From: a virus
Virus record (IMG/VR): IMGVR_UViG_3300012078_000128
Location: 1 to 64,000 of that record
Direction: 5' to 3' (one strand)
Length of the DNA: 64,000 nucleotides
Shown: positions 21,674-63,112 of the stretch, one piece after another
How positions within the stretch are numbered: the stretch's first letter is position 1
Layout of the letters: each line of letters starts with the position of its first letter
Notes under the pieces: generated by a model
What the model was told of the DNA's origin: nothing
Seen by the model: only the letters and a program-made list of their open reading frames with translations
Database searches by the model: none
Position numbers and translations under genes: made by a program

Positions 21674-21716
21674 TAGTGTATAATATCACCAAATTAGAGA
21701 GAAGGGAATTCGAGAA

Positions 21717-37785: not shown

Positions 37786-37807
37786 TTACGTTAAGGAGGT
37801 GACAGAA

Positions 37808-38926: not shown

Positions 38927-38962
38927 TAAATTTAGTGCCGTTAGGTGCTATTACCTAAGAAC

Positions 38963-38983
38963 CCCACGACTTTAGTCGTGTGG
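38963..38983 (+). repeat. IS right-end subterminal hairpin (also the 3' end of the predicted omega-RNA scaffold)
   Basis: CCACGAC-TTTA-GTCGTG(T)GG. A related CCCAC...GTGGG hairpin sits about 20 nt inside the left end (36873-36892). Confidence 0.55.
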
Positions 38984-38991
38984 AGTGTCAG

Positions 38992-41900
38992 GAAGCTTGC
39001 TTTATTCAAAAGGAAGAAGAAATTTATGAACGCATGAATTATCTACCTAAAGAAATTATCATGGAAGCTATTGAAAACACGCTGCTTATTGGCAAGATGT
39101 GCGAAGATTACACTATTGAGCAGCCAACTATTATTCCAAAGATTGAACTTCCTGAATTCGAAATAGAACATCTATTCAAACCTGCTTACGAGAAATATGA
39201 ATACATTGAGAAAACGGCTAATAGTAAATATAAGCAAGATAGGTACGCTATGTATCTCATTGAAAAAGGTTTTCGGGACAAATTAATGAAGCCAGAATTA
39301 ACACATGAAAAATTCCATCAAATTCTTGCTCGAATTAATGTTGAATTAGGTGAGCTTTGGCAACTTAGCGAAGAGCTTAATCAACGGATGACTGACTACT
39401 ACATTTCAGTCAGGCAATTAATATCCATAATTTGGAAAGATGACTGTGGGAATAGTATCGTTCCAGCAGGTAGAGGAAGTTCTTCAGGATTTATTTTGAA
39501 TTTTTTATGGGACATAACTCAGATTAATCCTTTGGAGTATGGTGTAGAAATTCCACATTGGCGACACTTGCACCATAGTCGCCCTGATATTGGTGCATTA
39601 GATATTGACATTGATACTGAATCGAACAAAAGACAAAGAATACTTAAATCACTAAAAAGAAAGTTTGGCGAAGAAAGAATTCTACAGGTTGCTACGTTTG
39701 GCACACAAGGCTCACGTTCTGCCATCCTAACAGCTTGCAGGGGGCTTGGGTTAGATAGTGATATTGGTCTTCATCTTAGTGGCTTAATCCCATTTGAACG
39801 TGGACAAAACTGGAGCATTAAAGATTGTCTGTATGGGAATACAGAAAAAAATAGAAAGCCAGTTAAGGAATTCATAAATGAAATAGATAAATATCCTAAG
39901 CTACAGTCCATGATTGAAAAAGTTGAGGGTAAGATTGATAAACGAAGCATCCATGCAGGTGGAATTATTCTTTTCCCTGAAAACTATGTAAAGTCTAATG
40001 CTATGATGAAAGCACCGAATGGTACACCTATTACTCAATTTTCATTAGATGACTGCCAAAGTGTAGGAAATATAAAATATGATCTCTTAACAATTGAGGG
40101 AGCAGATCGAATAAGAGCTACTTTCGATTTGTTACTAAAACATGGTGAAATTGAATGGAAAGGTTCTTTGAAAGCAACTTATGATTATTACCTACATCCA
40201 GATAACATTGATATGGAAAATCCTGAGCTTTACAAAATGCTCGGTAGTGGCGAAGTAGCTTCACTTTTTCAGTTCAGCACGGAACAGGGTATCCAAGCAG
40301 CGACAAAAACAAAGCCTACTAATCTAATTGAGACAGCAGCAGCTAACAGTCTTATGCGCTTAATGTCTGATTCAGGTGGAGAACAACCAATAGACACATT
40401 CGTAAGATATAAAAATGATATTAGCTTGTGGTATGAAGAAATGAAGAGGCATGGATTAAATGAAAATGAAATTTTAGTCATGGAAGAATACTTATTACCA
40501 CTTTCAGGAATTTCCGATACACAGGAAGTTGTTATGCGACTTGCTATGGATAATCGGATAGCTGGTTTTGATATAATTGAGTCCAATAAATTGCGGAAAT
40601 TAATCGCTAAGCGAGATGAAAAACTCTTAGAAGTAATGGAAAATGAATTTTATTCTAAAGGGCTCTCTCTAGGAAATAGAAAAGAAATTCTTTCGTATGT
40701 TTGGGATGTTCAAATCAAAAGAATGCTTGGTTATGCGTTTAGTATCTGTCACACCATTTCATATTCGATAATTGCTTTACAAGAACTTACTCTTAACTAT
40801 AACTATAATCCTATCTATTGGCAGACTGCATGTTTGTCAGTTAACTCTGGTAGCCTAGAAGTTGATGAAGATACTAAATCATCCACAGGAGCTTACGGGA
40901 AGGTGGCTTCAGCTATTTCTGAAATACAGCAATCGGGAGTTACAGTTTCTTTGCCTGACATCAATAAAGCAGAGTACAGCTTCACTCCAGATGTTGAAAA
41001 CAATAAAATTATATTTGGTTTACGCGGTTTAATTGGTGTCGGAGACTCCGTTGTTGATACTATAATCCAAAACAGGCCGTACACATCATTTGAGGACTTT
41101 TATTCACGTCTATATACTACCAAACTAGTTACCAATTCACATATGGTACAGCTAATTAAAGCTGGCTGCTTTGACGAATTTGATGACCGTACGACAACTA
41201 TGCAGAAATATGTTAATCTCACATTTTCACCAAATAAGAAACTTTCTACTGCTAACCTAAAGAATTTAATCAATCTGAATCTTATTCCAAATAAATATGC
41301 CCTACATATTAGATATTATAAATTTAAAGAACATATTTATTCCCGTTCAATTGGCAAATTGAATGATCGCAAAACTAAAAACCGACTATTCCTTTTAGAT
41401 AATGTATCAACTGAATTTCTAATTGAACATTTCTCAGAGGATTCTATTGTAGATTATCGTGATGGGCAACCTATTATTCTTGAAGCATTGTTTGATAAAG
41501 AATACGACAAGAAAATGGAAGTTATTAAGGAGTGGTTAAAAGAAGATTCAACTCTACACATATATAACAATAAACTTAGAGAACAACATTGGATTGATAC
41601 AACTAAAGGTATTGATAATGTTTCTGCTTGGGAAATGTCGAGTTTATCCTATTATAATTCACCGCATGAATTAGCTAATGTAGATAAAGTTAAATATGGT
41701 ATCAAAGACTTCTACTCACTTCCTGAAAATCCTCTAGTAGTTAATGAATACGAATGGGGCAATCGTAAAATGAAGGAGTTTGATATTTGTCGCATTGCTG
41801 GAACTGTATTGGACAAGGATAAAAATAAACATACTGTTACAATATTGACTACAGATGGAGTTGTCACATGCAAATTTTATGGTAATCAATACAGTAGCTT

Positions 41901-42123
41901 GGACAGACAATTATCAGTAAAAGGCTCAGATGGGAAGAAGCAAGTAATTGAAAAAGGCTGGTTTGTACGTGGCAACCTTGTAATTCTTACAGGTTATAGA
42001 CGTGGCAATCAATTTATACCTAAACGTTACAAAAATTCCGTATATAATACTACAATTGCTTTGATTGACAACGTATTAGACAATGGAGAACTTAGCCTTA
42101 TAACTGAACGAGCAGAAATATAA
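38992..42123 (+). CDS. DNA polymerase III alpha (YorL-like), exon 2
   Basis: Polymerase-like sequence resumes at EACFIQKEEEIY and continues for more than 1000 aa (fingers/palm regions, C-terminal OB-like). The ORF-track GTG at 38980 lies inside the IS right-end hairpin. Confidence 0.8.
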   Translation, partial: EACFIQKEEEIYERMNYLPKEIIMEAIENTLLIGKMCEDYTIEQPTIIPKIELPEFEIEHLFKPAYEKYEYIEKTANSKYKQDRYAMYLIEKGFRDKLMKPELTHEKFHQILARINVELGELWQLSEELNQRMTDYYISVRQLISIIWKDDCGNSIVPAGRGSSSGFILNFLWDITQINPLEYGVEIPHWRHLHHSRPDIGALDIDIDTESNKRQRILKSLKRKFGEERILQVATFGTQGSRSAILTACRGLGLDSDIGLHLSGLIPFERGQNWSIKDCLYGNTEKNRKPVKEFINEIDKYPKLQSMIEKVEGKIDKRSIHAGGIILFPENYVKSNAMMKAPNGTPITQFSLDDCQSVGNIKYDLLTIEGADRIRATFDLLLKHGEIEWKGSLKATYDYYLHPDNIDMENPELYKMLGSGEVASLFQFSTEQGIQAATKTKPTNLIETAAANSLMRLMSDSGGEQPIDTFVRYKNDISLWYEEMKRHGLNENEILVMEEYLLPLSGISDTQEVVMRLAMDNRIAGFDIIESNKLRKLIAKRDEKLLEVMENEFYSKGLSLGNRKEILSYVWDVQIKRMLGYAFSICHTISYSIIALQELTLNYNYNPIYWQTACLSVNSGSLEVDEDTKSSTGAYGKVASAISEIQQSGVTVSLPDINKAEYSFTPDVENNKIIFGLRGLIGVGDSVVDTIIQNRPYTSFEDFYSRLYTTKLVTNSHMVQLIKAGCFDEFDDRTTTMQKYVNLTFSPNKKLSTANLKNLINLNLIPNKYALHIRYYKFKEHIYSRSIGKLNDRKTKNRLFLLDNVSTEFLIEHFSEDSIVDYRDGQPIILEALFDKEYDKKMEVIKEWLKEDSTLHIYNNKLREQHWIDTTKGIDNVSAWEMSSLSYYNSPHELANVDKVKYGIKDFYSLPENPLVVNEYEWGNRKMKEFDICRIAGTVLDKDKNKHTVTILTTDGVVTCKFYGNQYSSLDRQLSVKGSDGKKQVIEKGWFVRGNLVILTGYRRGNQFIPKRYKNSVYNTTIALIDNVLDNGELSLITERAEI

Positions 42124-50720: not shown

Positions 50721-51425
50721 ATGAATACAAGGGAGAAACACAAACACATGAAAAATTTAAATGAAGAAAAACAACTTAAATCCACACGTAAGTTCCGTAC
50801 TGGTCAATCTGTATTTGATACAATTGCTAATAAAAAGGTACGCTTCCTAACTTACATTAACTCTGAAACAGCTAAGGTCTCTGTGCTTGTTGATCATGAT
50901 AAAAATACAGGTGTTGTATCGACTAAGAACTATGACGTACTTGTATCTCAATTGGTTGTTGATCGTTCTAAGCGCAAATCGAACAAACCTAGATACCGCA
51001 AGACACCATACCAACAAGTTAGAGAATTTCAAAAGGTGTTCGGTCACCCAGTAGGCGATGTTCCTCAAATGCTTAATCCTGAACGCGAAGCTAAACGTCT
51101 AGCATGGAAAGAAGAAGAAATCCAAGAACAAAAAGATGCTACGACTCTAGTAGATAAAGTCGATGCTCTTATTGACCAATTGTACTTTATCTATGGTGAT
51201 TTTGTTGAAATGGGTGTTGATCCACAACCTTTGTTTGATATTGTGCAGCGAGCAAATATGGGCAAAATTTGGGACGATGGAGTACCTCGATTCCGCGAAT
51301 CAGACAATAAGATTATGAAACCACCTCATTGGGAAGAAAAATTCGCGCCTGAAAAACTTATTGAAAAAGAGTTAGAAAAACAAAAGTATTTTGCACAAAA
51401 GAGATTGACAAAAGAAAATAGTTAA
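50721..51425 (+). CDS. MazG-like all-alpha NTP pyrophosphohydrolase with N-terminal extension
   Basis: YQQVREFQKVFGHP...EEEIQEQKDA...DALIDQLYFIYG fits the MazG/HisE-type helices. Confidence 0.55.
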   Translation: MNTREKHKHMKNLNEEKQLKSTRKFRTGQSVFDTIANKKVRFLTYINSETAKVSVLVDHDKNTGVVSTKNYDVLVSQLVVDRSKRKSNKPRYRKTPYQQVREFQKVFGHPVGDVPQMLNPEREAKRLAWKEEEIQEQKDATTLVDKVDALIDQLYFIYGDFVEMGVDPQPLFDIVQRANMGKIWDDGVPRFRESDNKIMKPPHWEEKFAPEKLIEKELEKQKYFAQKRLTKENS

Positions 51426-51437
51426 TATAATATTATA

Positions 51438-51476
51438 TACAGAGGTTGATATTCAGTTATCTTCCTCTGTATTTTT
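51438..51476 (+). terminator. Rho-independent terminator
   Basis: TACAGAGG (51438-51445) pairs with CCTCTGTA (51464-51471), followed by TTTTT. Confidence 0.7.
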
Positions 51477-51499
51477 AAATTAAAGGAGAATATTATTTT

Positions 51500-52144
51500 A
51501 TGAATTCAGAAGAAAATGTTTATCATTCGTCAGAATTAACCTTACCTTACAATTACAACTACACACCTGAGCAACACTTTTACGACCCTAAGCATAAACG
51601 TTTAGTGCATAAAGCACTACGCACATTAGGTAGTGATCCATATGCATTAGCAAAAAAACATGGCATGGAATATGAAGATTTCGTACAATATGGTAATGAA
51701 ACATTCTGGAAAGCTTGCCATAGCTATTCTTCAACTCACAAGTATAAATTTTCTACATATGCTATAAAAGCTGTTAGATGGCGCATAATGGACTTAATTA
51801 ATTCAGGGTGTGGAATCATTACATATACTAAAAAAGTAAGTGAAGAAGAACGTATTGGACTTTCTAGCTTGGACGAACCTTATGAAGGTAAAGATGGTGG
51901 TGAAACTAGCCTACATGATGTAATACCAGATAATAATACATATGTAGTTGATAGTTTAATTGAGGATTTGAAACATAATGATTACATAAAAGGTTTAAAT
52001 GAAACTCAAAAGAAAGTAGTTAATTTAAAAATAGATAAATATTTAGATACAGAAATCGCGGATATTCTTGGGCTTACTCGACAAAGAATTGGACAAATCG
52101 TAAAAGAAATAAGATTTATGCTTAAAGGAGAAATTGCTGTATGA
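51500..52144 (+). CDS. Sigma-70-family (group 4-like) sigma factor
   Basis: Region 2-like YGNETFWKACHSY...FSTYAIKAVRWRIMDLI; region 4 HTH LDTEIADILGLTRQRIGQIVKEI. Confidence 0.75.
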   Translation: MNSEENVYHSSELTLPYNYNYTPEQHFYDPKHKRLVHKALRTLGSDPYALAKKHGMEYEDFVQYGNETFWKACHSYSSTHKYKFSTYAIKAVRWRIMDLINSGCGIITYTKKVSEEERIGLSSLDEPYEGKDGGETSLHDVIPDNNTYVVDSLIEDLKHNDYIKGLNETQKKVVNLKIDKYLDTEIADILGLTRQRIGQIVKEIRFMLKGEIAV

Positions 52145-52926
52145 GTAGCTTTGATAAGCAGTATCAAAGACTTGTCAAAAACATATTGAATAATGGCTTT
52201 CTAGCTTCAAACAGGACAGTAGATCGCACAAAAAAGGTATTCGGTGAAGTTTTGTACGTAGACTTACAAAAAGAATTTCCCTTGCTAACTGTAAAACATA
52301 CACCAATTAGAACACTTGTTAAAGAAATGTTGTGGATTTACCAACAACAATCAAACGATGTTACTTGGCTTCAAAATAGAAACGTCCGTATTTGGAATGA
52401 ATGGGTAGACGAGAATAATACTATAGGTGAGGCATATGGTGCTCAAATAAAGAAACACAATCAAATGGACAATCTCATCTATGATTTGAAGAACAAAAAT
52501 CAATCAAGACGCATGATGATTAATTTGTGGCAGAATGCTGACTTACATAAAATGCAACTTACACCGTGTATGTTTAATTCAATATGGGATGTTAATAACG
52601 GTTTTCTAAACACTCATGTAACAATTCGTAGCTCTGATGTAGCATTAGGTTTACCTTTTAATGTGGCTCAAATGGCTGTGTTAAACCTTATGTTGGCACA
52701 GGTTAGTAATCTTAAAGCAGGCAAGATGATTTTTGCTATTACGAATGCCCACTTATACGAGCATCATCTTGAACCAATTAGTACTATCTTAAATAGGGAG
52801 CCTTATAAAGCACCAACTGTTAAATTAAATAAGAAGGTTACAGATTTTTACTCATTCGCAGATCAAGATGTAATTCTAGAAAACTATCAATCTCATCCTA
52901 AAATTTCAATGAGGGTGAGTATATAG
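52141..52926 (+). CDS. thyA: Thymidylate synthase
   Basis: SRRMMINLWQ...LTPCMFNSIW (catalytic Cys), RSSDVALGLPFNVAQ, NAHLYEHH. Confidence 0.9.
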   Translation: MSSFDKQYQRLVKNILNNGFLASNRTVDRTKKVFGEVLYVDLQKEFPLLTVKHTPIRTLVKEMLWIYQQQSNDVTWLQNRNVRIWNEWVDENNTIGEAYGAQIKKHNQMDNLIYDLKNKNQSRRMMINLWQNADLHKMQLTPCMFNSIWDVNNGFLNTHVTIRSSDVALGLPFNVAQMAVLNLMLAQVSNLKAGKMIFAITNAHLYEHHLEPISTILNREPYKAPTVKLNKKVTDFYSFADQDVILENYQSHPKISMRVSI

Positions 52927-52934
52927 GGAAAGGA

Positions 52935-53465
52935 TTGTTCAACATAAGTATCTCATTAATCGCATGTGTAGATGAAAACTTAGGGCTTGGTCATGAAAAT
53001 AAACTTCTTACTCATCTACCTAAAGACTTGGCTCACTTTAAGCGACTAACTAAGGGTAATATTTGCATTCAAGGGCGCAATACATATGAATCAATCATGG
53101 CTTACAACAATAAGCCTTTGCCAAATAGAACGAACATGCTACTTACGACACAAGAGAATTACAAAGCTCATCCGTCTGTGTTTGTATACAATTCAATGAG
53201 CGATATTCAACACGAGTATTATAGCTACTGTGACAAGGATACAGAAGTATTCGTGATAGGCGGTGGGGAGCTTTATCGTCAATTCCTCCCAATAGCCGAT
53301 TACATCTATCTGACAGTCATACATCACAAGTTTGAAAATGTTGATACGCATTTCCCACAGTTCCTTCAAGATTCTCGTTGGATGCTACAATGGGAACAGC
53401 GTCACATGAAAGATGATAAACACAGATATGATTATTCTTTTAGAAAATACTCACTTAAACACTAA
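52935..53465 (+). CDS. dfrA: Dihydrofolate reductase
   Basis: ISLIACVDENLGLGHENKLLTHLPKDLAHFKRLT...GRNTYESI and VIGGGELY. Confidence 0.85.
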   Translation: MFNISISLIACVDENLGLGHENKLLTHLPKDLAHFKRLTKGNICIQGRNTYESIMAYNNKPLPNRTNMLLTTQENYKAHPSVFVYNSMSDIQHEYYSYCDKDTEVFVIGGGELYRQFLPIADYIYLTVIHHKFENVDTHFPQFLQDSRWMLQWEQRHMKDDKHRYDYSFRKYSLKH

Positions 53466-53483
53466 ACTAAAGGAGATGTATAT

Positions 53484-54008
53484 ATGACTAATGTTAATGT
53501 AATAGCAATTGAGGGCTGTGACGCAACAGGGAAAACTACTTTGGCCAAACAACTTAGCGATAAACTTAATATGCTTATTGTGAAAGGATCTTCATTTGAG
53601 AATGCTGAATGTGATAACACTCAACTATTCAAACACTTCAACAAAGTAGCTAATGCTTCAAATGTAATCATTGACCGTACTATATACTCTAATAGAGTTT
53701 ACGCCACACTATATGATGATTACGCTATCCTAACAGATGAACAACGTATGCAAATAGAAGACAAATTTAAAAATAAGACACTTGTTTTATATCTTACAGC
53801 AGACGTAGACACAATTATTGATCGTATTAACGTACGTGGGGATGACTATGTTACACCTGATAAAATTCAATCTATTGTAAGCAATTATAATAGTGTAATG
53901 TCTGATGCGATGAACAATGATGTAATTGTACTTACATATAATACAACTGAATGGACTACAAATGGAATTGTAGATGATGTGCAACGATATATGGAATACG
54001 GAGTCTAG
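53484..54008 (+). CDS. Thymidylate/dNMP kinase-like P-loop kinase
   Basis: IAIEGCDATGKTTLAKQL P-loop; DRTIYSN. Confidence 0.7.
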   Translation: MTNVNVIAIEGCDATGKTTLAKQLSDKLNMLIVKGSSFENAECDNTQLFKHFNKVANASNVIIDRTIYSNRVYATLYDDYAILTDEQRMQIEDKFKNKTLVLYLTADVDTIIDRINVRGDDYVTPDKIQSIVSNYNSVMSDAMNNDVIVLTYNTTEWTTNGIVDDVQRYMEYGV

Positions 54009-54009
54009 T

Positions 54010-54231
54010 ATGAACTCAATTATCAATAATGTTCGCACGTTACTTGATAGATACCCAAATAAGTTAACAACTAATAATAAACTTGTGTTGATGTATTGGA
54101 AGGAGTTTGATGATGTATTCATTGACTCTGACCACATTAGCACCAAAGATTTTCTTACCAAAGTAACAATATATGATGATATCATTAACGCCTTAGCCAT
54201 TATCGTATTACAAGGAGAACAGAAATGGTAG
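54010..54231 (+). CDS. Hypothetical protein
   Basis: The ATG at 54010 lies 6 nt after GGAG. The ORF-track start 53974 overlaps the kinase gene. Confidence 0.5.
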   Translation: MNSIINNVRTLLDRYPNKLTTNNKLVLMYWKEFDDVFIDSDHISTKDFLTKVTIYDDIINALAIIVLQGEQKW

Positions 54232-54386
54232 ATAAATGTTCCTTATGCGATATTCCATTAACTGATTCAGATCAATATTTCCAATCCAATACTAAAGCTA
54301 AAGTATGTTCATTTTGCATGGAAGAAATGTGTAATCACAATAAGAAATTGAGTCAATTCAAAGGGGATAGAAATAATGAAAAATAA
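54225..54386 (+). CDS. Small zinc-ribbon protein (53 aa)
   Basis: Own translation MVDKCSLCD...KVCSFCMEEMCNH. SD AAGGAG 7 nt upstream. Confidence 0.45.
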   Translation: MVDKCSLCDIPLTDSDQYFQSNTKAKVCSFCMEEMCNHNKKLSQFKGDRNNEK

Positions 54387-54834
54387 AGAATATGTGACTA
54401 ACCATAATGAAGATGTAGACTTCATTTATAATAAAGTGGACAGGCTGCCAATCAACGGTGATGTTCTATATATTCATACTGTTACTGGTCAGCAAATTGG
54501 CGAGCACGACACAGTAGTTTCATGCGATTATGAAAAAAATACATATAAAACACAGTTCTACACAGTTACAATGCAAGATAAGTTTGATGTTCTTGAGTTT
54601 GATAATAGGGTAAATGTAAATGGTATTACATATGTTAAGGAAAATAACCGCAACTTACTCACATTAATTAATTCACTACAAGATCAATTGGATGCTGTTA
54701 GTGGCAACGTAGTCATGATTGGTGAAGAGTTGAAACAACATAAGCATAATACACATGAAGCATTTAATGATATAGGTGAAGAATTGTCTAGATTTGATGA
54801 AGCATTAGAATCCACAATAAAAGTAATTAAATAA
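54376..54834 (+). CDS. Hypothetical protein
   Basis: ORF track. SD AAAGGGGA. Confidence 0.6.
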   Translation: MKNKEYVTNHNEDVDFIYNKVDRLPINGDVLYIHTVTGQQIGEHDTVVSCDYEKNTYKTQFYTVTMQDKFDVLEFDNRVNVNGITYVKENNRNLLTLINSLQDQLDAVSGNVVMIGEELKQHKHNTHEAFNDIGEELSRFDEALESTIKVIK

Positions 54835-54885
54835 TATACAATAAAACGATAATATAATTACAAAAAGGTTTTTTGGGGGATGTTA

Positions 54886-55047
54886 ATGGAATTCTTAGTA
54901 CTAGGGGTTTTAATATTAGCTTATATAATAGGGATATATAACAACAATAATAAACTTGATTCAGGAAACGTCATTCGTCTCATTGCAGTTGCTTTTGTAA
55001 TGTTATGTACAGCTAGCCTCTATGTGCTCTTAGAAGGGTTAAAATGA
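54886..55047 (+). CDS. Small two-TM membrane protein (53 aa)
   Basis: Own translation MEFLVLGVLILAYIIGIY...IRLIAVAFVMLCTASLYVLLEGLK, after GGGGGA. Confidence 0.45.
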   Translation: MEFLVLGVLILAYIIGIYNNNNKLDSGNVIRLIAVAFVMLCTASLYVLLEGLK

Positions 55048-55175
55048 ATATCACACGTCACGATTATCAAATTGCATTAGCAAATGGTTTAACATTAGAT
55101 CAGTTTCACCGTCTTATCTTTGTACATAGGCTAACAGTAGAAGAGGCTATTTCTATCGTTAAAGAAAATAAGTGA
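55044..55175 (+). CDS. Small hypothetical protein (43 aa)
   Basis: ATGA overlap with the previous gene. Confidence 0.3.
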   Translation: MNITRHDYQIALANGLTLDQFHRLIFVHRLTVEEAISIVKENK

Positions 55176-55318
55176 TATATCAATTAAAAAAAGATGATTT
55201 TAATACAACCAATTAAGCACTCCACAGCAATCACACTGGTTATCGTGATTACGTTCATCTTAATTAAATTATTTAATTGATAATAAATTTAATATGAAAA
55301 GGGGATCTATATGTAAGT

Positions 55319-55876
55319 ATGGCTAAAATCAATCACGGAGCAAGGTTTCAAGAAGACATTCAAAATAGCGCAAACAAGCAAGATGTATGGTTTATGAGAA
55401 TAAAGGATGTACACATACCCTTTAAGCTACGTGGCCAGATTAAAGTAAGTAGAAATGAATACGATAATCTTATGTTCTATGATGGAGTACTCTTTCCAAT
55501 GGAACTTAAAAGTACACAGTCAAAAAGTGTAAGCTTTGATGAAGCTATTATAAAACAACATCAAATAGAAAATTTACAGAAGGCTCATACATATAAAGGT
55601 GTAATTGCTGGCTTTTTAATGAATTTTAGAACATATGACAACGCAACATTTTTCATCCCTGTAGATAGATTTGTAGAATATATGTTAGTCGCACAAAACG
55701 GATTAGAACATAACTATACAGCTAAAGTTAACAAGTCTAGTATTCCATTAGATATTTGTAAGGAAATTGGATACGAATTATTTGGAATTAAGAAACGTAC
55801 ACGTTATCAGTACTATATAAAAGATTTACTTAGCACGTTATCCAGTACATATAATATCAACAAAACACCTCTTTAA
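55319..55876 (+). CDS. RecU-like Holliday-junction resolvase (PD-(D/E)xK)
   Basis: GARFQEDIQNS..., YDNLMFYDGVLFPMELKSTQSKSVSF (D...E-x-K) and IIKQHQIENL match the RecU core blocks. Confidence 0.65.
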   Translation: MAKINHGARFQEDIQNSANKQDVWFMRIKDVHIPFKLRGQIKVSRNEYDNLMFYDGVLFPMELKSTQSKSVSFDEAIIKQHQIENLQKAHTYKGVIAGFLMNFRTYDNATFFIPVDRFVEYMLVAQNGLEHNYTAKVNKSSIPLDICKEIGYELFGIKKRTRYQYYIKDLLSTLSSTYNINKTPL

Positions 55877-55892
55877 TACTGGAGGTGTTTTT
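55863..55892 (+). terminator. Rho-independent terminator
   Basis: AAACACCTC (55863-55871) pairs with GAGGTGTTT (55882-55890), followed by a T-run. Confidence 0.7.
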
Positions 55893-55955
55893 ATTATTTT
55901 TACCCTTTTAAATTTTTTCTTCCTATAGTATAATTAGTATTAACAAAATGGGACG

Positions 55956-57188
55956 GTGAAGTTAATGAAAAAAGTGGTTGTAGACCTAGCAAACATCGTT
56001 ACTGATAAAGTGAAATCATTGATACAAGAAAATCCTTATGGCTATGCAGAAGGAATCAGTTCTGTGGCTCAAGAATTAGAAAGTGTTCGCAAATACAGAA
56101 TGAAAGATTTTGATAATGTTATTGGCTATTTAATTGAAGAAGAATTGAATTTGTTTAAATCTAATACTTCAAATGAAGAAAAAACACAAGGGTCGTTAGT
56201 ATTTGATACAAGCAAAAAGATTCTTGAGGAAGTTAAAGCATTAAGAAGAACACGTAATCGTAAAACAAATAGAGTGGATACAAACATATTGACTCACGCA
56301 CCTTACTTTGCTGGAGGCAGTAAGACACGTAAACAAAAAGCAAAACAGGATGGCTATATAGCACTGGATAAGCAAGGCATTAGAAAATTAACCTATGAAA
56401 ATGATATGGGTATGATGCTAACAATGGTAGATGCTAAGGTATTATTTTCTTTATTCTCTATATGGGAAGATCAGCAATTTTCAGATTGGCTATCCTTTAG
56501 CGAATATCAACTGTTAGATAAAATGGGATCAGGTATTGGTGGAAAGCAATATGCGTTACTCAGAGAATCATTAGAAAAACTCCGAAACACTTCTGTAGTT
56601 TTTAATGAGGCATACAATCATGAAAAAGGAACTCGATATTCTACTGAACGCTTCAAGCTGATCATTGCTGATAAGTTTGTTGTTGAAGAAGATAAAAAAG
56701 GCAAGGTTCTCTCCAAAGAATACTCAATTCAATTTTCAAAACACATTAATACATCAATCCGTAGTGGTTATTATTCATTAGTTAGTTTAGCTATACTTAA
56801 TGAGCTAGAATTAGCAACTGCCCAAGGAATATATTTATTATTAGCTGGAATTGCTGATATGGATCGGAAGGAAAGTTACATTAAACAAAATGAAGAGTAT
56901 GTATTTGACCTGTCTGAATTGTATGAGTCTCTTTTCTTAGAAAATGAAAGCAAACACAATCGGAAGACTGTAGAAAGAGGCTGTGAAGAACTAAAAGAAA
57001 GTGGTGTTATTCAAGATTTCTATTTTAAGAAAGAGGGAAAAAAATATAGCAGTCTTGTGATAACTCTTTCTGATTGGAGTCAGGACATTATTAACAGAAG
57101 AGAAAATACAACTTTAGAAACTGAACAGCTTAGTTTCTTGGAAACTGGTAACTTAAGCAATCAACATAAAAATACTTCAGACAAATAA
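55956..57188 (+). CDS. Plasmid RepA-like replication initiator candidate
   Basis: 410 aa directly upstream of the iteron array. The segment GGKQYALLRESLEKLRNTSVVF resembles the wHTH region of iteron-binding Rep proteins. Alternative ATG at 55965. Confidence 0.5.
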   Translation: MKLMKKVVVDLANIVTDKVKSLIQENPYGYAEGISSVAQELESVRKYRMKDFDNVIGYLIEEELNLFKSNTSNEEKTQGSLVFDTSKKILEEVKALRRTRNRKTNRVDTNILTHAPYFAGGSKTRKQKAKQDGYIALDKQGIRKLTYENDMGMMLTMVDAKVLFSLFSIWEDQQFSDWLSFSEYQLLDKMGSGIGGKQYALLRESLEKLRNTSVVFNEAYNHEKGTRYSTERFKLIIADKFVVEEDKKGKVLSKEYSIQFSKHINTSIRSGYYSLVSLAILNELELATAQGIYLLLAGIADMDRKESYIKQNEEYVFDLSELYESLFLENESKHNRKTVERGCEELKESGVIQDFYFKKEGKKYSSLVITLSDWSQDIINRRENTTLETEQLSFLETGNLSNQHKNTSDK

Positions 57189-57193
57189 ATTTA

Positions 57194-57613
57194 GGGTATG
57201 TTAGGGTACAGTAGAACATAAGTTTACCTTATATTCTTACTATTTCTCCGAAGGGATGTTAGGGTACAGTAGTAATGTTATTTATATTTGTAATAATCTC
57301 ATTTCAAAGGGATGTTAAGGTACAGTATTAGAAATTTTAACGTTTTAATAAAAATATTTTTGCTTCCGTTAAAAACCCTTGATATACAAGGGTTTTTTGT
57401 TTTGTAGCTAAACAAATCAACTTTTTTCTCATGTAAAAGGTACGTTAGGGTACAGTAGTGTTAATTTTAAACCTTTATTGTTGAATTTTATAAAGGGATG
57501 TTAAGGTACAGTAGAACATAAGATCCCCATTTTACAAAAGCAATTCCTAAAGGGATGTTAGGGTACAGCATTTTTTAGCAAATTTGAGGCAAAGGGACGC
57601 TAAGGTACAGTAT
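57194..57613 (+). repeat. Iteron array: seven direct 21-22 bp repeats, consensus AAGGGATGTTARGGTACAGTA
   Basis: Copies at about 57194-57222, 57251-57272, 57307-57328, 57436-57458, 57493-57522, 57549-57569 and 57592-57613, all in the same orientation. Copies 1 and 5 share the extension GAACATAAG. Confidence 0.85.
57371..57397. terminator. Bidirectional hairpin in the middle of the iteron array
   Basis: AAAAACCCTTG-ATATA-CAAGGGTTTTT. Confidence 0.6.
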
Positions 57614-57671
57614 TCACAACTCTATCAAGGTGATGTATATTGGTGAAAATTGATAGAAGGAGGTGTTTGCT

Positions 57672-58994
57672 GTGATATATGAGGATGTTTACCAATTCTT
57701 AATGCGACAAGCTTCATCCAAAGAGTTTGATATTATTCTGAACCTGATTTTACATTCCGATTGGAATTCTAATGTTCGTATAGACTTAGATGATTTGGCT
57801 AAGAAGTCTGGTACTACAAAGCGCTATGTCAAAGATGTAATGCAAAAATTCCAATCTGCACAAAAAAACAAATTCGTTATCAAAAGAAATTCTCACGATC
57901 AATACTGTCCATTTACAATGAATATTGGTAAGTCTTCTCTCTTTTACTCGAAAGGAGACAACTATTGCAAAAAGTTCTCATATCTTTACAGTAAAACTTT
58001 CCAACCACTATCAATTTACGAAAAGCGAATCATGCTTGCAATTGGTAAAATGGTTTCTAAAACAAACCAGACTTCTGTTTTCTTAAAGGTGTCCGATTTT
58101 ATTTATCGAGATGAACTTTCTAGTGGTTTAATTCCAAGCCGCAAAACACTTATATCATCCATATCTAATCTTAATCAAACTTTTAACAATAAGTTAAAGG
58201 TCTCTTTAGTATCCTCTACATTAACAAAAACTGAACTAATTCAAGTTAACTTATCTGAAGACATGATCGAAAATACTGAAAACAATTTTACTGAGCGTTT
58301 CTATTTGCGGAAAACGCTTTTTGAGCATGGATTCGCTAATGTACTTGAGGATGAATACTGCATCGAGATTGAAAAGACTGCAAAGTATATCTTCAACTCA
58401 TTTATTAAGAAAGCTAAAAAGCTTAACATTTCTGGCTTAGTGGATCAGTTAATGTTTATCGCCAGAGACATCTATACTACTTCATTGAAGAAACTAGCTA
58501 ACAATTTAAATTCGCTTGTACAAGATATTGCAGATCCTAAAGAAGTATCTGCTTATTTCAGCGCGGTTGTATTCTCTGTGGTTGCTGAAGAAATGGCTAA
58601 ATACAAGCACCAAGAACAAACTGTTAGCAGCCTTTACAATTCTTTAGCTGTTAATGAAGGTTATGAAGAGATTCAAAAACGAATTGAACTCCTTAATTCT
58701 ATATCAAGTATATTGGAAGAATTTGAAACTGAATGGATCATGTCTCGTGCTAAGACTAATGCTGAACGTAAAACTGATCAGGAACAAGCTATTGAAGCAA
58801 ATGAAAATCTTCGTGAATATATTGCTACATTCCTCACTCCTATAGAATCATTGGTTGGAGAGTGGGGGAACAAAGCTATTGCTTTAGCTGATCGTATCAA
58901 TCCCATGAAAACATTTAGGCAGCAAATTGTAGATTTCTTAACTGTTCATACGGATAGGCTAAAAAATCAAACTGTGGTCTTGCCTCAATTTTAA
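57672..58994 (+). CDS. Second initiator-like wHTH protein downstream of the iterons
   Basis: The GTG at 57672 lies 7 nt after GAAGGAGGTG. N-terminal IDLDDLAKKSGTTKRYVKDVMQKF is HTH-like. Function inferred from context. Confidence 0.45.
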   Translation: MIYEDVYQFLMRQASSKEFDIILNLILHSDWNSNVRIDLDDLAKKSGTTKRYVKDVMQKFQSAQKNKFVIKRNSHDQYCPFTMNIGKSSLFYSKGDNYCKKFSYLYSKTFQPLSIYEKRIMLAIGKMVSKTNQTSVFLKVSDFIYRDELSSGLIPSRKTLISSISNLNQTFNNKLKVSLVSSTLTKTELIQVNLSEDMIENTENNFTERFYLRKTLFEHGFANVLEDEYCIEIEKTAKYIFNSFIKKAKKLNISGLVDQLMFIARDIYTTSLKKLANNLNSLVQDIADPKEVSAYFSAVVFSVVAEEMAKYKHQEQTVSSLYNSLAVNEGYEEIQKRIELLNSISSILEEFETEWIMSRAKTNAERKTDQEQAIEANENLREYIATFLTPIESLVGEWGNKAIALADRINPMKTFRQQIVDFLTVHTDRLKNQTVVLPQF

Positions 58995-59090
58995 GCGGTG
59001 GTTTTCCCATCGCTATTTGTCGTGGCTTAATATATAAAACAGCATAATCCAACCAGCAATTTAACGCTAAACTATTAAATCCATCTTTAA

Positions 59091-59123
59091 AAGACATATC
59101 CAATTTGAGAGATATGTCTTTTT
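59091..59123 (+). terminator. Rho-independent terminator
   Basis: AAGACATATC (59091-59100) pairs with GATATGTCTT (59111-59120), followed by TTT. Confidence 0.75.
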
Positions 59124-59646
59124 GTTTAGTTTTTTACATTAAATTACACTGTGAATATAACTTATTTAGTTGTTATAACAGTTATTGAAGCTGTTTTTCA
59201 TACATTAAGGTTTGTAGATATATAGGAAATATCTGTAATTAGGTTTATTGGAATGTGGTTTAGTAAATACGAGTCTAAATTTATATTCAGGTTGTTGCCA
59301 GATCAAGCTTCATTACATATTTATATGCATAGTACTAAATTATAGAACTTAATCTTTGTACTAAAGATGATTTTGAATTGTTACTAAAAAAGATTCTGAT
59401 GATTATATTGAATGAACAGAAAATGCAACCAGTGAATTATACTTCAAGGAATCAGTAAAAAATTCAAATAAAAATTAAAAAATGTAAAAACTACGTTTTT
59501 AGTAACTTCTCAAAACTATAAATAAATATCTCAATATCACTAGTATTCTCTATTATGAGATACAATAAAAGGTTCATTCAATAACTTCCGATAATTAGCA
59601 TTATGACTATTGATATAATAGAACAAAAATACGAACATAAAATTCA

Positions 59647-60033
59647 CTACTCACCTTCTTTTATAATACGAAATCTCCTACTTTTATTAGACACCTGTTC
59701 TGGATTAATAAAATCTATAGAATATTCAATTACATCATTTATTCTAAGTCCATTTTTCATTGCAAAGGTTTCTACAATATCTAAGAGTTGATCATTATAT
59801 GTTGTTCCAAATGTTTTTCTATCTTTGGGACGTGACTTCTTACTATAGAAAATTTCCCCACGGTTCAGAATATTCATCAATCCATTTTCAATAAGGTAGT
59901 TGTTGTGAGTATTGTATTCATGAGCCATTTGTTCAACCTTATCTAATAATGCTTTACTGATAGTTGTCTTAAATGTAATTCTAGTTTCATCTGTAACATG
60001 GTGCAATTCACCATTTATATTTAACCACATCAA
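59647..60033 (-). CDS. Tandem ribbon-helix-helix DNA-binding protein
   Basis: Two RHH-like units: ITFKTTISKALLDKVEQMAHEYNTHNNYLIENGL and KTFGTTYNDQLLDIVETFAMKNGLRINDVIEYSI. SD GAGGTGA. Confidence 0.55.
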   Translation of the reverse strand: MMWLNINGELHHVTDETRITFKTTISKALLDKVEQMAHEYNTHNNYLIENGLMNILNRGEIFYSKKSRPKDRKTFGTTYNDQLLDIVETFAMKNGLRINDVIEYSIDFINPEQVSNKSRRFRIIKEGE

Positions 60034-60210: not shown

Positions 60211-60492
60211 TCATTTATCTTCAGCGTTTTTAATCTTATCTCCTAGTCCTATAATTGGCTTCTTTTTTACAGCAGGTTTTGTCTTTACACTTTTCGTATC
60301 GTTCTCTCCCCTGCTGTTTTGTGCAGAAGGCATTACAAAAAATGTATCGCTCTCTCCTAAGTGAGCTTGATAAAATCTAATCGCATGTCTTATGACTTCA
60401 GCTTTTTTGCTTCTTGGAATTGAATCAATCCACTCAATAATGTCTTTATCTCCAACACCATCTAATGGCAGCCTATACATCATATCCTTCAT
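60211..60492 (-). CDS. Alp7R/ParR-like adaptor of the second actin system
   Basis: Immediately downstream of the actin gene, with its SD inside the actin gene's 3' end. RSKKAEVIRHAIRFYQAH is RHH/HTH-like. Confidence 0.5.
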   Translation of the reverse strand: MKDMMYRLPLDGVGDKDIIEWIDSIPRSKKAEVIRHAIRFYQAHLGESDTFFVMPSAQNSRGENDTKSVKTKPAVKKKPIIGLGDKIKNAEDK

Positions 60493-60494: not shown

Positions 60495-61589
60495 TTATTC
60501 ATCACTCTCCAATAGATACACACCGTATCTATAATAACCTTCCACATTACTATTTCCGTTATTGGGAGGAATTGTAACACCTTCTGCAATCTTATCTATA
60601 TAGTCTATAAATAATTCAGCACTTCCCCCTACTAACAATATTTCATCTAAGTCAGTTTGATTTTTCCACTTGCTCATAATGGCTTGTTGAGTCTCTAATG
60701 CAAGCTCACCTACACCTTCATGTAAAGCAGTAGTTAAATCTACAGCATCTCTTAATTTAGATGGTTTATATTCGTACTTAGCAGCGCCTTTATGGAGAGA
60801 TTTATTCTTTAATGTAGCCTCTATTACATCTAACAACTCATAATCATTTACAGGGTGAGATGGATACTTTTTAGTGATAACAGATCTCATATTATCATAC
60901 ACGTCTCTGAACCCTTTAGCTACACTATGGAAGCCCTTCTGTCTTCTTAAAGCATGTACAATATCTAAGTCAATTGTTCCTCCACCTATATCAATGACAG
61001 CGACTTTCATACTTTCATAATCTTCGTTCTCTACCCCACCCTCTTCATCTAAATATCGACCTATAACAGTTGATAGAGCCTGTGGCATCACCTCAACATG
61101 AGCTACTTTGAAGATTCTTAAATCGTCATTGATTCCGACCTCGTGTATACCTTTATTATCTCCTAGAAACACATTAGCGATTTCAGTTTCTGTTGCTGTT
61201 CCAGTTTCAATTGAAGGTACTCCAGTTACAATCAATATCTTTTCTGTTGGTTCTATTTCAAGGTCTACAACCATCTTAGCTAAAATGATTTTTGACATAA
61301 TCTTATATGCTTCAGTGCGGTATCTATTTTCATGGCCATGAGTCTGTTTGATGTCCATTACTTTAGTTATATCATTGCCCCATACATACTGGACATCATC
61401 TATTGTATATACATCAAGATCCATTGAATGGTCATTGATTGACTCACCCACGTTCTTCAAATAAGTAAAAGCACTTGGTTGTGTAAAACTGTATTCTTTA
61501 CCACGTTTGTCTACACTTCTTACTTTAACTAGTCCATTACCTAGATCAATACCTAGAACTCTATCGTATTTTACGTTATTTGAAGACAT
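60495..61589 (-). CDS. Alp7A/ParM-like actin-family ATPase (copy 2)
   Basis: VLGIDLGNGLVKV, AVIDIGGGTIDLD and LLVGGSAE are actin-fold motifs. SD AGGAGGG. Confidence 0.8.
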   Translation of the reverse strand: MSSNNVKYDRVLGIDLGNGLVKVRSVDKRGKEYSFTQPSAFTYLKNVGESINDHSMDLDVYTIDDVQYVWGNDITKVMDIKQTHGHENRYRTEAYKIMSKIILAKMVVDLEIEPTEKILIVTGVPSIETGTATETEIANVFLGDNKGIHEVGINDDLRIFKVAHVEVMPQALSTVIGRYLDEEGGVENEDYESMKVAVIDIGGGTIDLDIVHALRRQKGFHSVAKGFRDVYDNMRSVITKKYPSHPVNDYELLDVIEATLKNKSLHKGAAKYEYKPSKLRDAVDLTTALHEGVGELALETQQAIMSKWKNQTDLDEILLVGGSAELFIDYIDKIAEGVTIPPNNGNSNVEGYYRYGVYLLESDE

Positions 61590-61613
61590 TGAAAACCCTC
61601 CTATTTAACTATC

Positions 61614-61750
61614 TAGCTATATTAAACCATATTCATTAATTATTAGCAACAAAATAGCATTATCATGTCTAATTATTAGCCATAAAATCTAAAAATAGGA
61701 CTCTCTCCTAGTCTATCAATTTCATACTAGCTATTATTCTGCTATATTAA
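61614..61750. repeat. Short direct repeats upstream of actin copy 2 (candidate centromere or operator)
   Basis: TAATTATTAGC at 61638 and 61670. GCTATATTAA at 61616 and 61741. TAGCTAT at 61614 and 61728. Confidence 0.4.
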
Positions 61751-62155
61751 TGTCTAAAATTATGGCTCATTACTTTATACATACTCTATTTTATTAAGCC
61801 TTATTGTATAGTGACCAACAATTATAACCTGAACATTGAATTATAATGTAGAACAGTAATTAATATAGACTAAATTAACACTTAAGTTTAAGAAGTAATG
61901 AAGGACAACATAAACTATAACCTAAATATAGACCTTATTAGATAATGAAATATGATAGTTAATGTATGGCGATGAATAATACGAGCTTGAACTTCTCATA
62001 TATAATTTAGGGCAGTATATATCATGGTGTTTACTTTATGACATCTATTGTATGGTGATAAGTTGATGTAGGTGCGATGTGCGAGTTGTAATGTAGATTG
62101 AAATGGTGTTATAGGTTATAATTGACGTATTATAAAACGTGAAAGGGTGCTTCTA

Positions 62156-62788
62156 ATGGAAGAAGAAGTAAAATTTGAAGTTGATTTTGTCACAATAGGT
62201 GATGCAGCAGAAAAATTAGATGTGCCAGCAGCAACTTTAAGATCATGGACTGAACAGCTAGAAGATTTGAATGTTCATTATGTAAAGAGAAATCAGCGAA
62301 AAGAAAGAATTTATTACGCAAGTGATTTAAAAGTATTTCAATTCTTTAAATCTTTAAAAGCTGAACATGGAAGAAAAACGACAACTAAAGATTTAGCAGC
62401 AATGATAATTTATGAAACTGAAAAAAACGGAACTTATGAATTAAGAACTAGAGAAGATGCACCTGTACCAGAATCTACATTTGATGTTAATGAACTATTA
62501 AATCAAGATAATATGAAAGAGTTAATGGGTTCTAGTAGAGTTCAACAGTTTATGCATGTTATTACTGAAAAATTGAGAGATGAAGTAATTGAAGAAATGC
62601 GTGAAGAACGAAACCAAATGATATTGGAAATGAAAGAAGAGTTTAACGAACAATATAAAGCATTAGACAATCTTAAAGAGCACTTAGATGAGAAAATTGA
62701 AGCCAGAGATCAACAAGTGTTAGAACAGATGAATAAAGCTATAGAAGAAAGCAAAAGAGGGTTCTGGAGTAAGCTGTTTGGTAAATAA
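62156..62788 (+). CDS. MerR-type HTH + long coiled-coil protein
   Basis: VTIGDAAEKLDVPAATLRSWTEQLE...IYYASDLKVFQFF is a MerR-like wHTH. The C-terminal half is heptad-rich. The ATG at 62156 follows AAAGGGTG. Confidence 0.65.
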   Translation: MEEEVKFEVDFVTIGDAAEKLDVPAATLRSWTEQLEDLNVHYVKRNQRKERIYYASDLKVFQFFKSLKAEHGRKTTTKDLAAMIIYETEKNGTYELRTREDAPVPESTFDVNELLNQDNMKELMGSSRVQQFMHVITEKLRDEVIEEMREERNQMILEMKEEFNEQYKALDNLKEHLDEKIEARDQQVLEQMNKAIEESKRGFWSKLFGK

Positions 62789-62803
62789 GAAAGAAGGGCG
62801 ATC

Positions 62804-63112
62804 ATGGCTTTATTTTCACGTAAAATTGAGTGCTTAAATTGTGGTAAGAATTTCAAGGCAAAACGAGAATCTAAAAGGGTAGTTTATTGTTGTTCAACAT
62901 ACGATAATTTAGGTCGAGAACATTGTGAAAGAAACGCTATTAGCGAAGAAGATATAGTAGAACTAGTCAATAAGAGATTTGATAGAGAATTATCTATTGA
63001 GGAAATTGAAGAAGTGGTGGAACACATAGAAATACAAAATAGGTGGCAGTTCAAGATTCGCATAAAAAATGACATTCCCATCATTTTTGGTGATAATTTC
63101 ATCCAGTTTTAG
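62804..63112 (+). CDS. Stand-alone recombinase zinc-beta-ribbon-like fragment
   Basis: IECLNCGKNFKAKR...VYCCSTYDNLGREHCERNAISEEDIVELV resembles the zinc ribbon of large serine recombinases. There is no resolvase catalytic domain. Confidence 0.4.
   Translation: MALFSRKIECLNCGKNFKAKRESKRVVYCCSTYDNLGREHCERNAISEEDIVELVNKRFDRELSIEEIEEVVEHIEIQNRWQFKIRIKNDIPIIFGDNFIQF

Follow-up and report, generated by a model that had tools for sequence, protein, structure and literature searches.

What does a plasmid-type origin of replication do in a phage genome that has its own replication machinery? This question is raised by a stretch of viral DNA of 64,000 nucleotides, positions 1 to 64,000 of the IMG/VR record IMGVR_UViG_3300012078_000128 (hereafter, the window), in which seven direct repeats (iterons) lie between two open reading frames (ORFs), ORF1 and ORF2, close to an actin-type partition cassette. 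We consider it probable that this module is a plasmid-type, iteron-controlled theta replicon, through which a large, SPβ-like temperate phage would be kept as a plasmid prophage at low copy number. We infer the replicon function from homologues, from predicted structures, from the comparative anatomy of related loci, and from a single skew signature.

An Iteron Array between Two Genes

The module is composed of the following features:

55907-55934, plus strand: promoter-like site before ORF1, TTTAAA-16-TATAAT (consensus scan, 10/12 matches; consensus match only)
55965-57188, plus strand: ORF1, RPA-family double winged-helix replication initiator, proposed iteron-binding Rep (PF10134, structural model, homologues)
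57192-57327, plus strand: iteron group 1, three direct repeats with cores at 57195-57213, 57253-57271, and 57309-57327
57328-57438, plus strand: AT-rich central spacer of 111 nt and 23% GC, proposed DNA-unwinding element, containing the ORF1 terminator hairpin
57436-57612, plus strand: iteron group 2, four direct repeats with cores at 57439-57457, 57495-57513, 57552-57570, and 57594-57612
57613-57641, plus strand: promoter-like site for ORF2, TTCACA-17-TATATT, with a TG upstream of the -10 (consensus scan)
57672-58994, plus strand: ORF2, unannotated 440-amino-acid protein, conserved partner in the replicon (structural model, conserved pairing)

The initial annotation, made from the letters of the DNA, had described seven repeats in the same orientation, spaced mostly by 56-58 bp in two groups, and both statements hold. 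Indeed, repeat finding and a pattern search give seven copies of a 19-nt core, GGGATGTTARGGTACAGTA, at 57195-57612, with 0-2 mismatches each and all on the plus strand, and the measured copy-to-copy spacing is 58 and 56 bp in the first group, 130 bp between the groups, and 56, 57, and 42 bp in the second, the last value separating the final two iterons. The pattern has no further copy on either strand of the window outside the array; dinucleotide-preserving shuffles yield a mean of 0.02 matches, and none of the 100 shuffles reaches seven. Group 1 begins 7 nt past the ORF1 stop codon, and the -35 of the putative ORF2 promoter abuts the last iteron. No iterons were found upstream of ORF1 in the window.

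The hairpin at 57371-57397 (an 11-bp stem, AAAAACCCTTG/CAAGGGTTTTT, followed by a T-run) is a unidirectional terminator for ORF1. The hairpin itself had been correctly recognized, whereas its label as a bidirectional terminator is unsupported because the terminator scan calls it on the plus strand only and no minus-strand transcript needs termination there. The 23% GC of the spacer compares with a background of just ~31-33% GC, and no repeats of the 13-mer type are available to mark an unwinding element. The DnaA box TTATCCACA has no match within one mismatch in 51227-60020, i.e., several kb around the array. Finally, a canonical iteron plasmid has a single rep gene. In the window, the array comes after the rep gene and precedes a second, non-homologous gene of the Rep fold, so that the layout can no longer be described as canonical.

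ORF1 Is an RPA-Family Initiator, ORF2 an Unannotated Protein with a Rep-Like N-Terminus

The open frame of ORF1 extends over 55956/55965-57188, the most plausible start being the ATG at 55965, which gives a protein of 407 amino acids. In Pfam, it matches PF10134 (Replication initiator protein A, RPA) with 38.1 bits for a curated cutoff of 27 (E 1.7e-9), and its TrfA match is sub-threshold (13.5 bits for a cutoff of 22). Its AlphaFold2 model (predicted local distance difference test, pLDDT, 86.8; predicted template-modeling score, pTM, 0.83) was compared with the PDB using Foldseek and resembles domains 2-3 of RctB (E 1e-8), RepE54 (E 1e-5), and π on iteron DNA (E 8e-5), with a probability of 1.0 in each case; it carries an additional N-terminal helical domain of ~100 amino acids. 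A recent survey (bioRxiv 10.1101/2024.09.03.610885) counts RPA among replication-initiator domains of the double winged-helix type. The homologues of ORF1 form 20 clusters at 90% identity, which are 40-54% identical to the query; the PF10134 match is precomputed for 19 of them, and the three clusters to which a source gives a name are each called 'replication initiator protein A'. More distant homologues (24-27% identity) are annotated as plasmid rep genes. Literature searches found no experimentally characterized PF10134 member from the Bacillota.

ORF2 occupies the open frame 57663/57672-58994, with a GTG start 8 nt after AAGGAGG, and matches no family in Pfam, PHROG, or NCBIfam. Its AlphaFold2 model (pLDDT 82.8, pTM 0.70) comprises two helix/strand domains within residues ~1-200 and a helical C-terminal half (~207-435). 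The first part resembles RepE54 and the complexes of Rep with a DNA-unwinding element 8ac8/8aan, with a Foldseek probability of 0.99-1.0, E 0.05-0.1, and a target TM score of ~0.5. A word-indexed search recovered 13 clusters of ORF2 relatives, and an exhaustive profile scan recovered 56 representatives among 1.84 billion clusters at 50% identity. The putative recognition helix of ORF2 is nearly invariant.

At the level of the predicted fold, both proteins are thus initiator-like, strongly so for ORF1 and moderately for ORF2. The winged helix-turn-helix segments that had been read in both ORFs are borne out for ORF1 by the above-threshold PF10134 match and the RctB/RepE54/π fold, and this support is strong; for ORF2, they find moderate agreement in the predicted N-terminal fold (TM ~0.5) and none in a family match. 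Of the families that had been named for profile searches, RPA matches ORF1 and none matches ORF2; Rep_3 and RepA_N have no Pfam match in either protein, and no NCBIfam model matches ORF1 or ORF2. Family alignments of ORF1 and ORF2 gave no meaningful match in a sequence-profile search of the PDB, and an hhalign profile comparison detected no paralogy between the two.

The Module Is Conserved on Bacillaceae Replicons and Phage-Like Contigs

The ORF1 and ORF2 pair, with a gap of 0.5-1.1 kb between the genes, is kept in L001-L008, L012, and L015:

L001: Priestia megaterium pFDU301A, 1.08 Mb
L002 and L003: Virgibacillus sp., 158-kb contig
L004 and L005: Bacillus cereus-group genomes, 1.17-Mb contigs
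L006: phage-like metagenomic contig
L007 and L008: phage-like metagenomic contigs
L012: Oceanobacillus luteolus
L015: IMG/VR contig, 140 kb

Every one of these gaps contains 7-22 iterons on the same strand. Their 3' core is common to the loci (GGTACAGTA, or TGACAGTA in L007, L008, and L015), and their 5' half is lineage-specific. In each of the six RPA-type loci that were measured, the largest spacer is AT-rich (19-28% GC, 46-141 nt) and separates the iterons into two groups. The terminal spacing of 42 bp recurs, outside Priestia, in L002, L004, L006, L007, L012, and L015. In the relatives, the last iteron ends 60-80 nt ahead of the ORF2 start; in all RPA-type loci but the Priestia one, it is followed after ~20 nt by a GTGTAAATTG-like extended -10 and then, after ~35 nt, by the start of ORF2. 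Phasing is nearly identical in most of these loci. The Oceanobacillus spacing (58, 57, 123, 57, 57, 42) is a near copy of that in the window, yet the proteins are just 42-50% identical, which points to selection on the geometry of the whole array. Wherever the gene context was examined, the Bacillaceae subgroup of RPA proteins is paired with ORF2.

The 3.2-kb region of the window has no megablast match in phage or plasmid collections, and a search of 50,697 deposited phage genomes, those of SPβ relatives among them, gave no homologue of ORF1 or of ORF2. On non-phage plasmids and megaplasmids, the relatives of the two genes sit among housekeeping genes. Two further observations concern the Priestia plasmid. 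First, a second iteron family, with six copies of AAAAGGTGCAATTAAGGTACGGTAC 42-43 bp apart, lies upstream of the ORF1 homologue at 11661-11957; the iterons between the genes number 13, and both families share a GGTACG core. Second, tblastn reported a second ORF2-like place in pFDU301A.

Iteron Sequence Follows the Upstream Protein

The question of which protein reads the iterons can be approached through loci in which one partner has been exchanged. The megaplasmid pMEGANia of Niallia taxi (L010) has the same three-part layout as the window, with 14 iterons, TTTTCACCATTTCTTCGTGCTT, which share nothing with the GGTACAGTA type. Its ORF2 is 50% identical to that of Priestia over the full length (E 8e-169), whereas its upstream protein, of 480 amino acids, shows no relation in sequence to the ORF1 family (E 0.002 over 53 residues) and has only a sub-threshold Rep3_N match. 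Conversely, the ORF2 proteins of the window and of Priestia are just 28% identical, yet the iterons share their core. The Niallia-type upstream protein forms a family of its own, with six clusters (from Niallia, Virgibacillus halodenitrificans, Geomicrobium, and others), all of whose members are labeled 'hypothetical' and lack a Pfam domain. In L024, L025, and L026, a protein of this type is followed by 8-10 iterons, which in L024 and L026 are of the Niallia type and in L025 diverge further, and then by a gene for 344-369 amino acids. The four loci of this family that were examined, L010 included, carry related TTTTCTCCAATTTGTCGTGC-type iterons, irrespective of the downstream gene. These downstream genes were considered as ORF2 homologues and rejected, as they are not homologous. 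On a 35-kb plasmid of Paenibacillus brasilensis, the RPA gene is the only annotated rep gene and is directly followed by a 2 + 3 iteron array, with no ORF2.

Iteron sequence thus tracks the upstream Rep in two independent families, which argues for ORF1 as the initiator that binds the iterons, with ORF2 setting no specificity. From these comparisons, ORF1 is likely the iteron binder, and ORF2 appears as a swappable partner in a downstream slot that interchangeable proteins can fill. The same loci make it quite improbable that ORF2, alone or with ORF1, recognizes the repeats as the true initiator, with ORF1 as an auxiliary or regulatory Rep. The placement of four promoter-proximal iterons directly upstream of ORF2 does reproduce the classical order of iterons then rep, its N-terminus is a predicted RepE-like tandem winged helix in which the putative recognition helix hardly varies, and Priestia has one iteron variant upstream of ORF1 and another between the genes. 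However, the two Priestia variants have the GGTACG core in common, the helix-turn-helix of ORF2 is kept across loci with wholly different iterons, RPA replicons with downstream iterons occur without ORF2, and it is with the family of the upstream protein, not with ORF2, that the iterons change.

What ORF2 does can be proposed with low confidence. Given its iteron-gated promoter, its Rep-like N-terminus, and its occurrence beside different Reps, it may be a co-initiator or adaptor or may instead control copy number. A search for a conserved non-iteron motif that could serve as an ORF2 site found only A/T-rich 10-mers common to 11 loci. In L014 (Peribacillus sp., 224-kb contig), an ORF2 gene that stands alone is followed by a terminator and then by ~9 TGTGRAT motifs in 120 bp (9520-9645), one of which, TGTGGATAA, matches the DnaA box perfectly, a hint that ORF2 might also accompany an origin of the DnaA-box type.

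A Skew Switch at the Module of a Megaplasmid

GC skew and coding-strand bias were taken over 50 kb on each side of the module in two complete megaplasmids:

Niallia pMEGANia, 1.44 Mb: GC skew from -0.10 to +0.10; coding from 76% minus strand to 81% plus strand; switch exactly at the module
Priestia pFDU301A, 1.08 Mb: GC skew from +0.07 to +0.15; plus-strand coding from 45% to 62%; no clear strand switch and no sign change in skew

The switch in pMEGANia is a classical signature of a bidirectional origin. It supports the three-part architecture and the association of ORF2 with origins, and not directly the RPA-type version found in the window; the Rep of the pMEGANia module differs from ORF1. 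At the other loci, where flanks do not exceed 10 kb, GC skew is uninformative.

These data also bear on whether the array is mainly a transcriptional operator, through which a Rep-derived ORF1 regulates ORF2 in a decayed or domesticated replicon that has no origin function. We regard this as very improbable. It would fit with the last iteron abutting the ORF2 promoter, as well as with the lack of DnaA boxes, the Priestia module at which no skew switch occurs, and the existence of ORF2 genes without a replicon. On the contrary, both ORFs are intact in the window, three of the iterons come before the terminator and have no promoter near them, and the Niallia module sits at the skew switch. Moreover, the number, orientation, and phasing of the iterons and the AT-rich spacer are kept at near base-pair precision across homologues that are ~50% identical, and such conservation argues for selection on more than one promoter-proximal site.

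The Neighboring Partition Cassette

Downstream of ORF2, the following features succeed one another:

58995-59646: AT-rich non-coding stretch of ~650 bp, 18-29% GC, between the convergent ORF2 and Arc-like genes
59647-60033, minus strand: Arc/ribbon-helix-helix-like DNA-binding protein, 128 amino acids (phrog_582 Arc-like repressor, E 2.5e-5, weak)
60211-60492, minus strand: 93-amino-acid protein, encoded next after the actin gene (phrog_38823, a PHROG of unknown function, E 1e-16)
60495-61589, minus strand: Alp7A-like actin-family partition ATPase, 364 amino acids (Pfam ALP_N 64.5 bits, Alp7A_like_C 34.4 bits, both above cutoff)
61590-62146: divergent promoter region between the actin operon and a MerR-like gene, possible centromere (short repeats of 2-3 copies only)

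The actin gene also matches the partition protein family phrog_691 (E 5e-48), and its presence next to the replicon, on the other strand, agrees with the initial annotation; an ALP gene is likewise adjacent in L007 and L008, downstream and on the opposite strand, and ParA takes its place in L006. Such a pattern is in keeping with a unit of replicon and partition genes in which the partition system can be exchanged. By its position, the 93-amino-acid protein may be an adaptor of the Alp7R/ParR type. As in the Alp7A/Alp7R system of pLS20, the actin gene exceeds both the ALP_N and the Alp7A_like_C thresholds and a small gene comes next in the operon. The window differs from pLS20 in having no clear centromere array upstream and a small protein that falls in a PHROG of unknown function only.

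Type II partition centromeres are arrays of direct repeats, and the region immediately before the actin operon, 61590-62146, yielded no convincing array of this sort. The iterons could for this reason be taken as the centromere of the neighboring Alp7A-like system, a proposal that we find hardly credible: ORF1, iterons, and ORF2 occur without a nearby actin gene in L001, L002, L004, and L012, the iterons co-vary with the Rep family, and in L006 the module stands beside ParA in place of ALP, which argues against a centromere of the actin system.

Other observations were made in and around this region. The AT-rich stretch at 58995-59646 has no Rfam family and contains direct and inverted repeats with TTACTAAA at 59359-59399 and 59496-59515. 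A second actin-like gene (8447-9319, ALP_N 78.8 bits, 290 amino acids) lies ~50 kb from the Alp7A-like cassette, so that the element has two actin-type systems; an FtsK/SpoIIIE-like gene (12264-14450) is located near it.

The Module Occupies the Integration Slot of an SPβ-Like Phage

Judged by its gene content, the element in the window is a distant SPβ-like phage, and a genuine tailed temperate one. Its DNA polymerase III (Pol III) alpha subunit is 53% identical to YorL of SPβ, and the window also encodes a DnaB-like helicase, a primase, a RecJ-like exonuclease, and a ribonucleotide reductase; the DnaB, primase, and Pol III machinery that had been attributed to this genome is thus found. At 21717-22700 lies a protein with the fold of MrpR/YopR, MrpR being the master repressor of SPβ (PMC10516654). 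Two independent assemblies gave contigs of 117,007 and 118,042 bp. The sister contig carries thymidylate synthase, dihydrofolate reductase, deoxynucleoside monophosphate (dNMP) kinase, and a sigma factor as Pfam domains and, past the right edge of the window, an Amidase_2 endolysin, Holin_SPP1, XkdX, and two tail-fibre-like proteins of 1078 (BNR) and 476 (YadA-head-like) amino acids. Megablast of 24 kb returned no SPβ-like record, the sole nucleotide likeness to deposited phages being a mobile element. By its nucleotide sequence, the element falls outside the genus Spbetavirus, and the kinship is visible at the protein level only (44-53% identity).

Immediately before the module lies a gene that anchors the comparison with SPβ:

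55319-55876, plus strand: YotM-like (RecU-type) Holliday-junction resolvase (Pfam RecU, phrog_843)

Its product is 44% identical to SPβ YotM over the full length (E 6e-54). The SPβ genome (SPBc2, NC_001884) runs from ribonucleotide reductase and thioredoxin, further on, to YotM, SprB, and attP and, from attP, through the SprA integrase and cargo genes to holin and endolysin. The window runs from ribonucleotide reductase and a thioredoxin-like gene, further on, to the YotM homologue, ORF1-iterons-ORF2, the Arc-like gene, the Alp7A cassette, the MerR-like gene, an ORF with a Zn_ribbon_recom domain, endolysin, and holin. The element thus shares with SPβ the YorL and YotM homologues, a repressor of the MrpR fold, the genes for ribonucleotide reductase, thioredoxin, and dNMP kinase, and the order of replication block, YotM, and lysis genes. 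It differs in that SprB-attP-SprA and the cargo are replaced by ORF1-iterons-ORF2, the Arc-like gene, the Alp7A cassette, the MerR-like gene, and a 102-amino-acid Zn-ribbon ORF. The replicon and partition block fills the slot of the SprB-attP-SprA cassette of SPβ, of which the YotM-like gene forms the left border. The synteny is observed; from it, plasmid maintenance would have replaced integration at that position, and the case for life as a plasmid prophage rests mainly on this point. In a survey of SPβ relatives, the integration cassette was present in all 55 extracted prophages, the presence of the recombinase being a selection criterion (bioRxiv 10.1101/2021.11.22.469490).

The only recombinase-type ORF in the slot is the 102-amino-acid one. 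At 62147-63112, the MerR-like gene (phrog_3470) is followed by this free-standing recombinase zinc ribbon (PF13408, E 7e-9), before the endolysin. Its derivation from SprA is unsupported (E 0.11 with SPβ SprA); it could be the relic of a different serine integrase. At the other end of the slot, two direct repeats of ~20 bp, CACGTTATC(C)AGTAC(T/A)ATATAA, 35 bp apart, lie at 55800-55856, inside the 3' end of the YotM-like gene and just upstream of its terminator and of the ORF1 promoter.

The position of the module, at the end of a long plus-strand block of replication and nucleotide-metabolism genes, would also suit a vegetative (lytic) origin of the phage itself, used with its DnaB-like helicase, primase, and Pol III alpha, or an origin that serves both purposes. 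The phage has its own replisome genes, and we know of no described initiator or origin for SPβ-like phages, though we made no search for one. Nevertheless, we judge a lytic origin unlikely. Both genes lack homologues in the 50,697 phage genomes and have their relatives on non-phage plasmids and megaplasmids; a partition cassette adjoins the module, and it is the integration slot that is occupied. In iteron plasmids, moreover, control by iterons and Rep is characteristic of copy-number-limited replication.

Several observations weigh against a replicon that maintains this phage as a plasmid. Regarding the phage, ~37 kb of the ~117-kb contig lie outside view and may hold an integrase, and an Xer-like tyrosine recombinase is encoded at 19175-20257, which could be a dimer resolvase or an integrase. 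Regarding the proteins, the structural likeness of ORF2 to RepE is moderate (E 0.05-0.1, TM ~0.5), its C-terminal half has no Foldseek match in the PDB or among viral predicted structures, and the Niallia-type protein is called Rep-like from a sub-threshold Rep3_N match, its position, and its iterons only. Regarding the comparisons, pFDU301A, the only complete plasmid with an RPA-type module and ORF2, shows no sign change in skew, and intact ORF2 homologues occur without a Rep gene or iterons at L009, L013, and L014, so that the role of ORF2 may be unrelated to iteron origins. All in all, the overall interpretation given at the outset by the initial annotation, an iteron replicon with initiator-like genes and a partition system, is largely supported by the family and fold of ORF1, the homologous plasmid modules, and the adjacent actin cassette.

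Other parts of the window deserve mention. The 19175-20257 recombinase was considered as SPβ YopP and rejected; it is Xer-like and closest to those of Geobacillus virus E3 and of large Bacillus siphoviruses. At 19175-22700, this gene, a 445-amino-acid phrog_5732 protein, and the MrpR/YopR-fold protein stand in a row, recalling the lysogeny-management genes of SPβ. The Pol III alpha/YorL-like gene is apparently split into a PHP-domain ORF (36052-36906) and a main body of 1047 amino acids (38980-42123), with a transposase-like ORF (37691-38926, phrog_506) between the two parts. The region ~36850-38990, which is 78-80% identical in nucleotides to short 'Listeria phage LM' records and in parts matches Staphylococcus and Enterococcus phages, resembles a mobile element. 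Scans of the window for Rfam families and for tRNAs were empty.

How the Replicon Could Work

In the mechanism that we favor, ORF1 would bind the seven same-strand iterons, its two winged-helix domains probably reading the 3' half, which is conserved (GGTACAGTA), and the 5' half, which varies with the lineage. The 111-bp spacer of 23% GC, between the groups of three and four iterons, would be the likely unwinding element. The ORF1 transcript is predicted to run through the first three iterons and to end at the 57371-57397 hairpin. Because the -35 of the ORF2 promoter directly adjoins the last iteron, occupancy of this iteron by Rep probably sets ORF2 expression. ORF2 itself would most likely, though with low confidence, come into play once the origin has been recognized, helping as a co-initiator or adaptor to remodel it or to recruit the helicase; with the same low confidence, it may instead control copy number. 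By homology, the adjacent Alp7A-like cassette would partition the copies.

A broader view can be put forward tentatively, and we think it less probable than not by a clear step: ORF2 would found an undescribed Rep-fold family of 'second initiators' in a two-protein origin system, and the element would be the first phage of the SPβ lineage to have given up its integration cassette in exchange for such a replicon and to live as a plasmid. In such a system, an iteron-reading Rep from interchangeable families would recognize the origin, and a conserved double winged-helix partner, expressed from an iteron-gated promoter, would carry out a later step, for instance melting it or recruiting the helicase; Bacillaceae megaplasmids and phage-plasmids would both use it.

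Relation to Known Replicons and Significance

The module resembles mini-F RepE/ori2, R6K π, pPS10 RepA, RK2 TrfA, and RctB of Vibrio chromosome 2 in its same-orientation repeats of ~20 bp beside a rep gene. With double winged-helix iteron replicons in general, it shares an AT-rich stretch next to the iterons, an iteron overlapping a promoter, and, for ORF1, the RctB/RepE54/π fold. Unlike them, it has all of its iterons downstream of rep, split around an AT-rich spacer and a terminator, no DnaA boxes, a conserved second Rep-fold gene, and an N-terminal helical domain in ORF1. RPA initiators of PF10134 are annotated on plasmids of Paenibacillus, Deinococcus, and Meiothermus, and ORF1 passes the curated threshold of this family; the 35-kb P. 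brasilensis plasmid even has the same layout of rep followed by split downstream iterons. The plasmid pBMB165, which came up in the literature, belongs to the pAMβ1 family and is irrelevant here.

Among phage-plasmids (P1 with RepA/oriR/incA and ParAB, N15, SSU5, and plasmid prophages of the B. cereus group), we find the same combination of a phage genome with a Rep/iteron replicon and active partition. As in P1, lytic growth has a replication apparatus of its own, and the iterons flank the rep gene or come after it. The window differs from these named phage-plasmids by its SPβ-like backbone, its RPA-type replicon with ORF2, and its actin-like partition, and its extrachromosomal state is putative. 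An iteron/Rep theta replicon in a likely phage-plasmid is of an already known kind. Three features are new: the three-part architecture, which is conserved and includes an unannotated second protein of the Rep fold; the exchange of components among Bacillaceae megaplasmids; and the fact that an SPβ-like phage has such a replicon in its integration slot. No experimental description of the three-part module was found in the literature.

The naturally shuffled parts (two Rep families, at least two families of downstream partners, and ORF2 orphans) allow the contribution of the second Rep-fold protein to be tested, and a compact low-copy theta replicon of ~3.2 kb for Bacillaceae could serve as a laboratory tool. 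Replicon typing limited to known Rep families would miss ORF2, and it misses the Niallia-type Rep. With this module, a replicon type is defined for large replicons of the Bacillaceae, megaplasmids of 1.0–1.4 Mb among them; if confirmed, its presence in this phage would represent a clear case of a lifestyle switch by module replacement in a model phage lineage.

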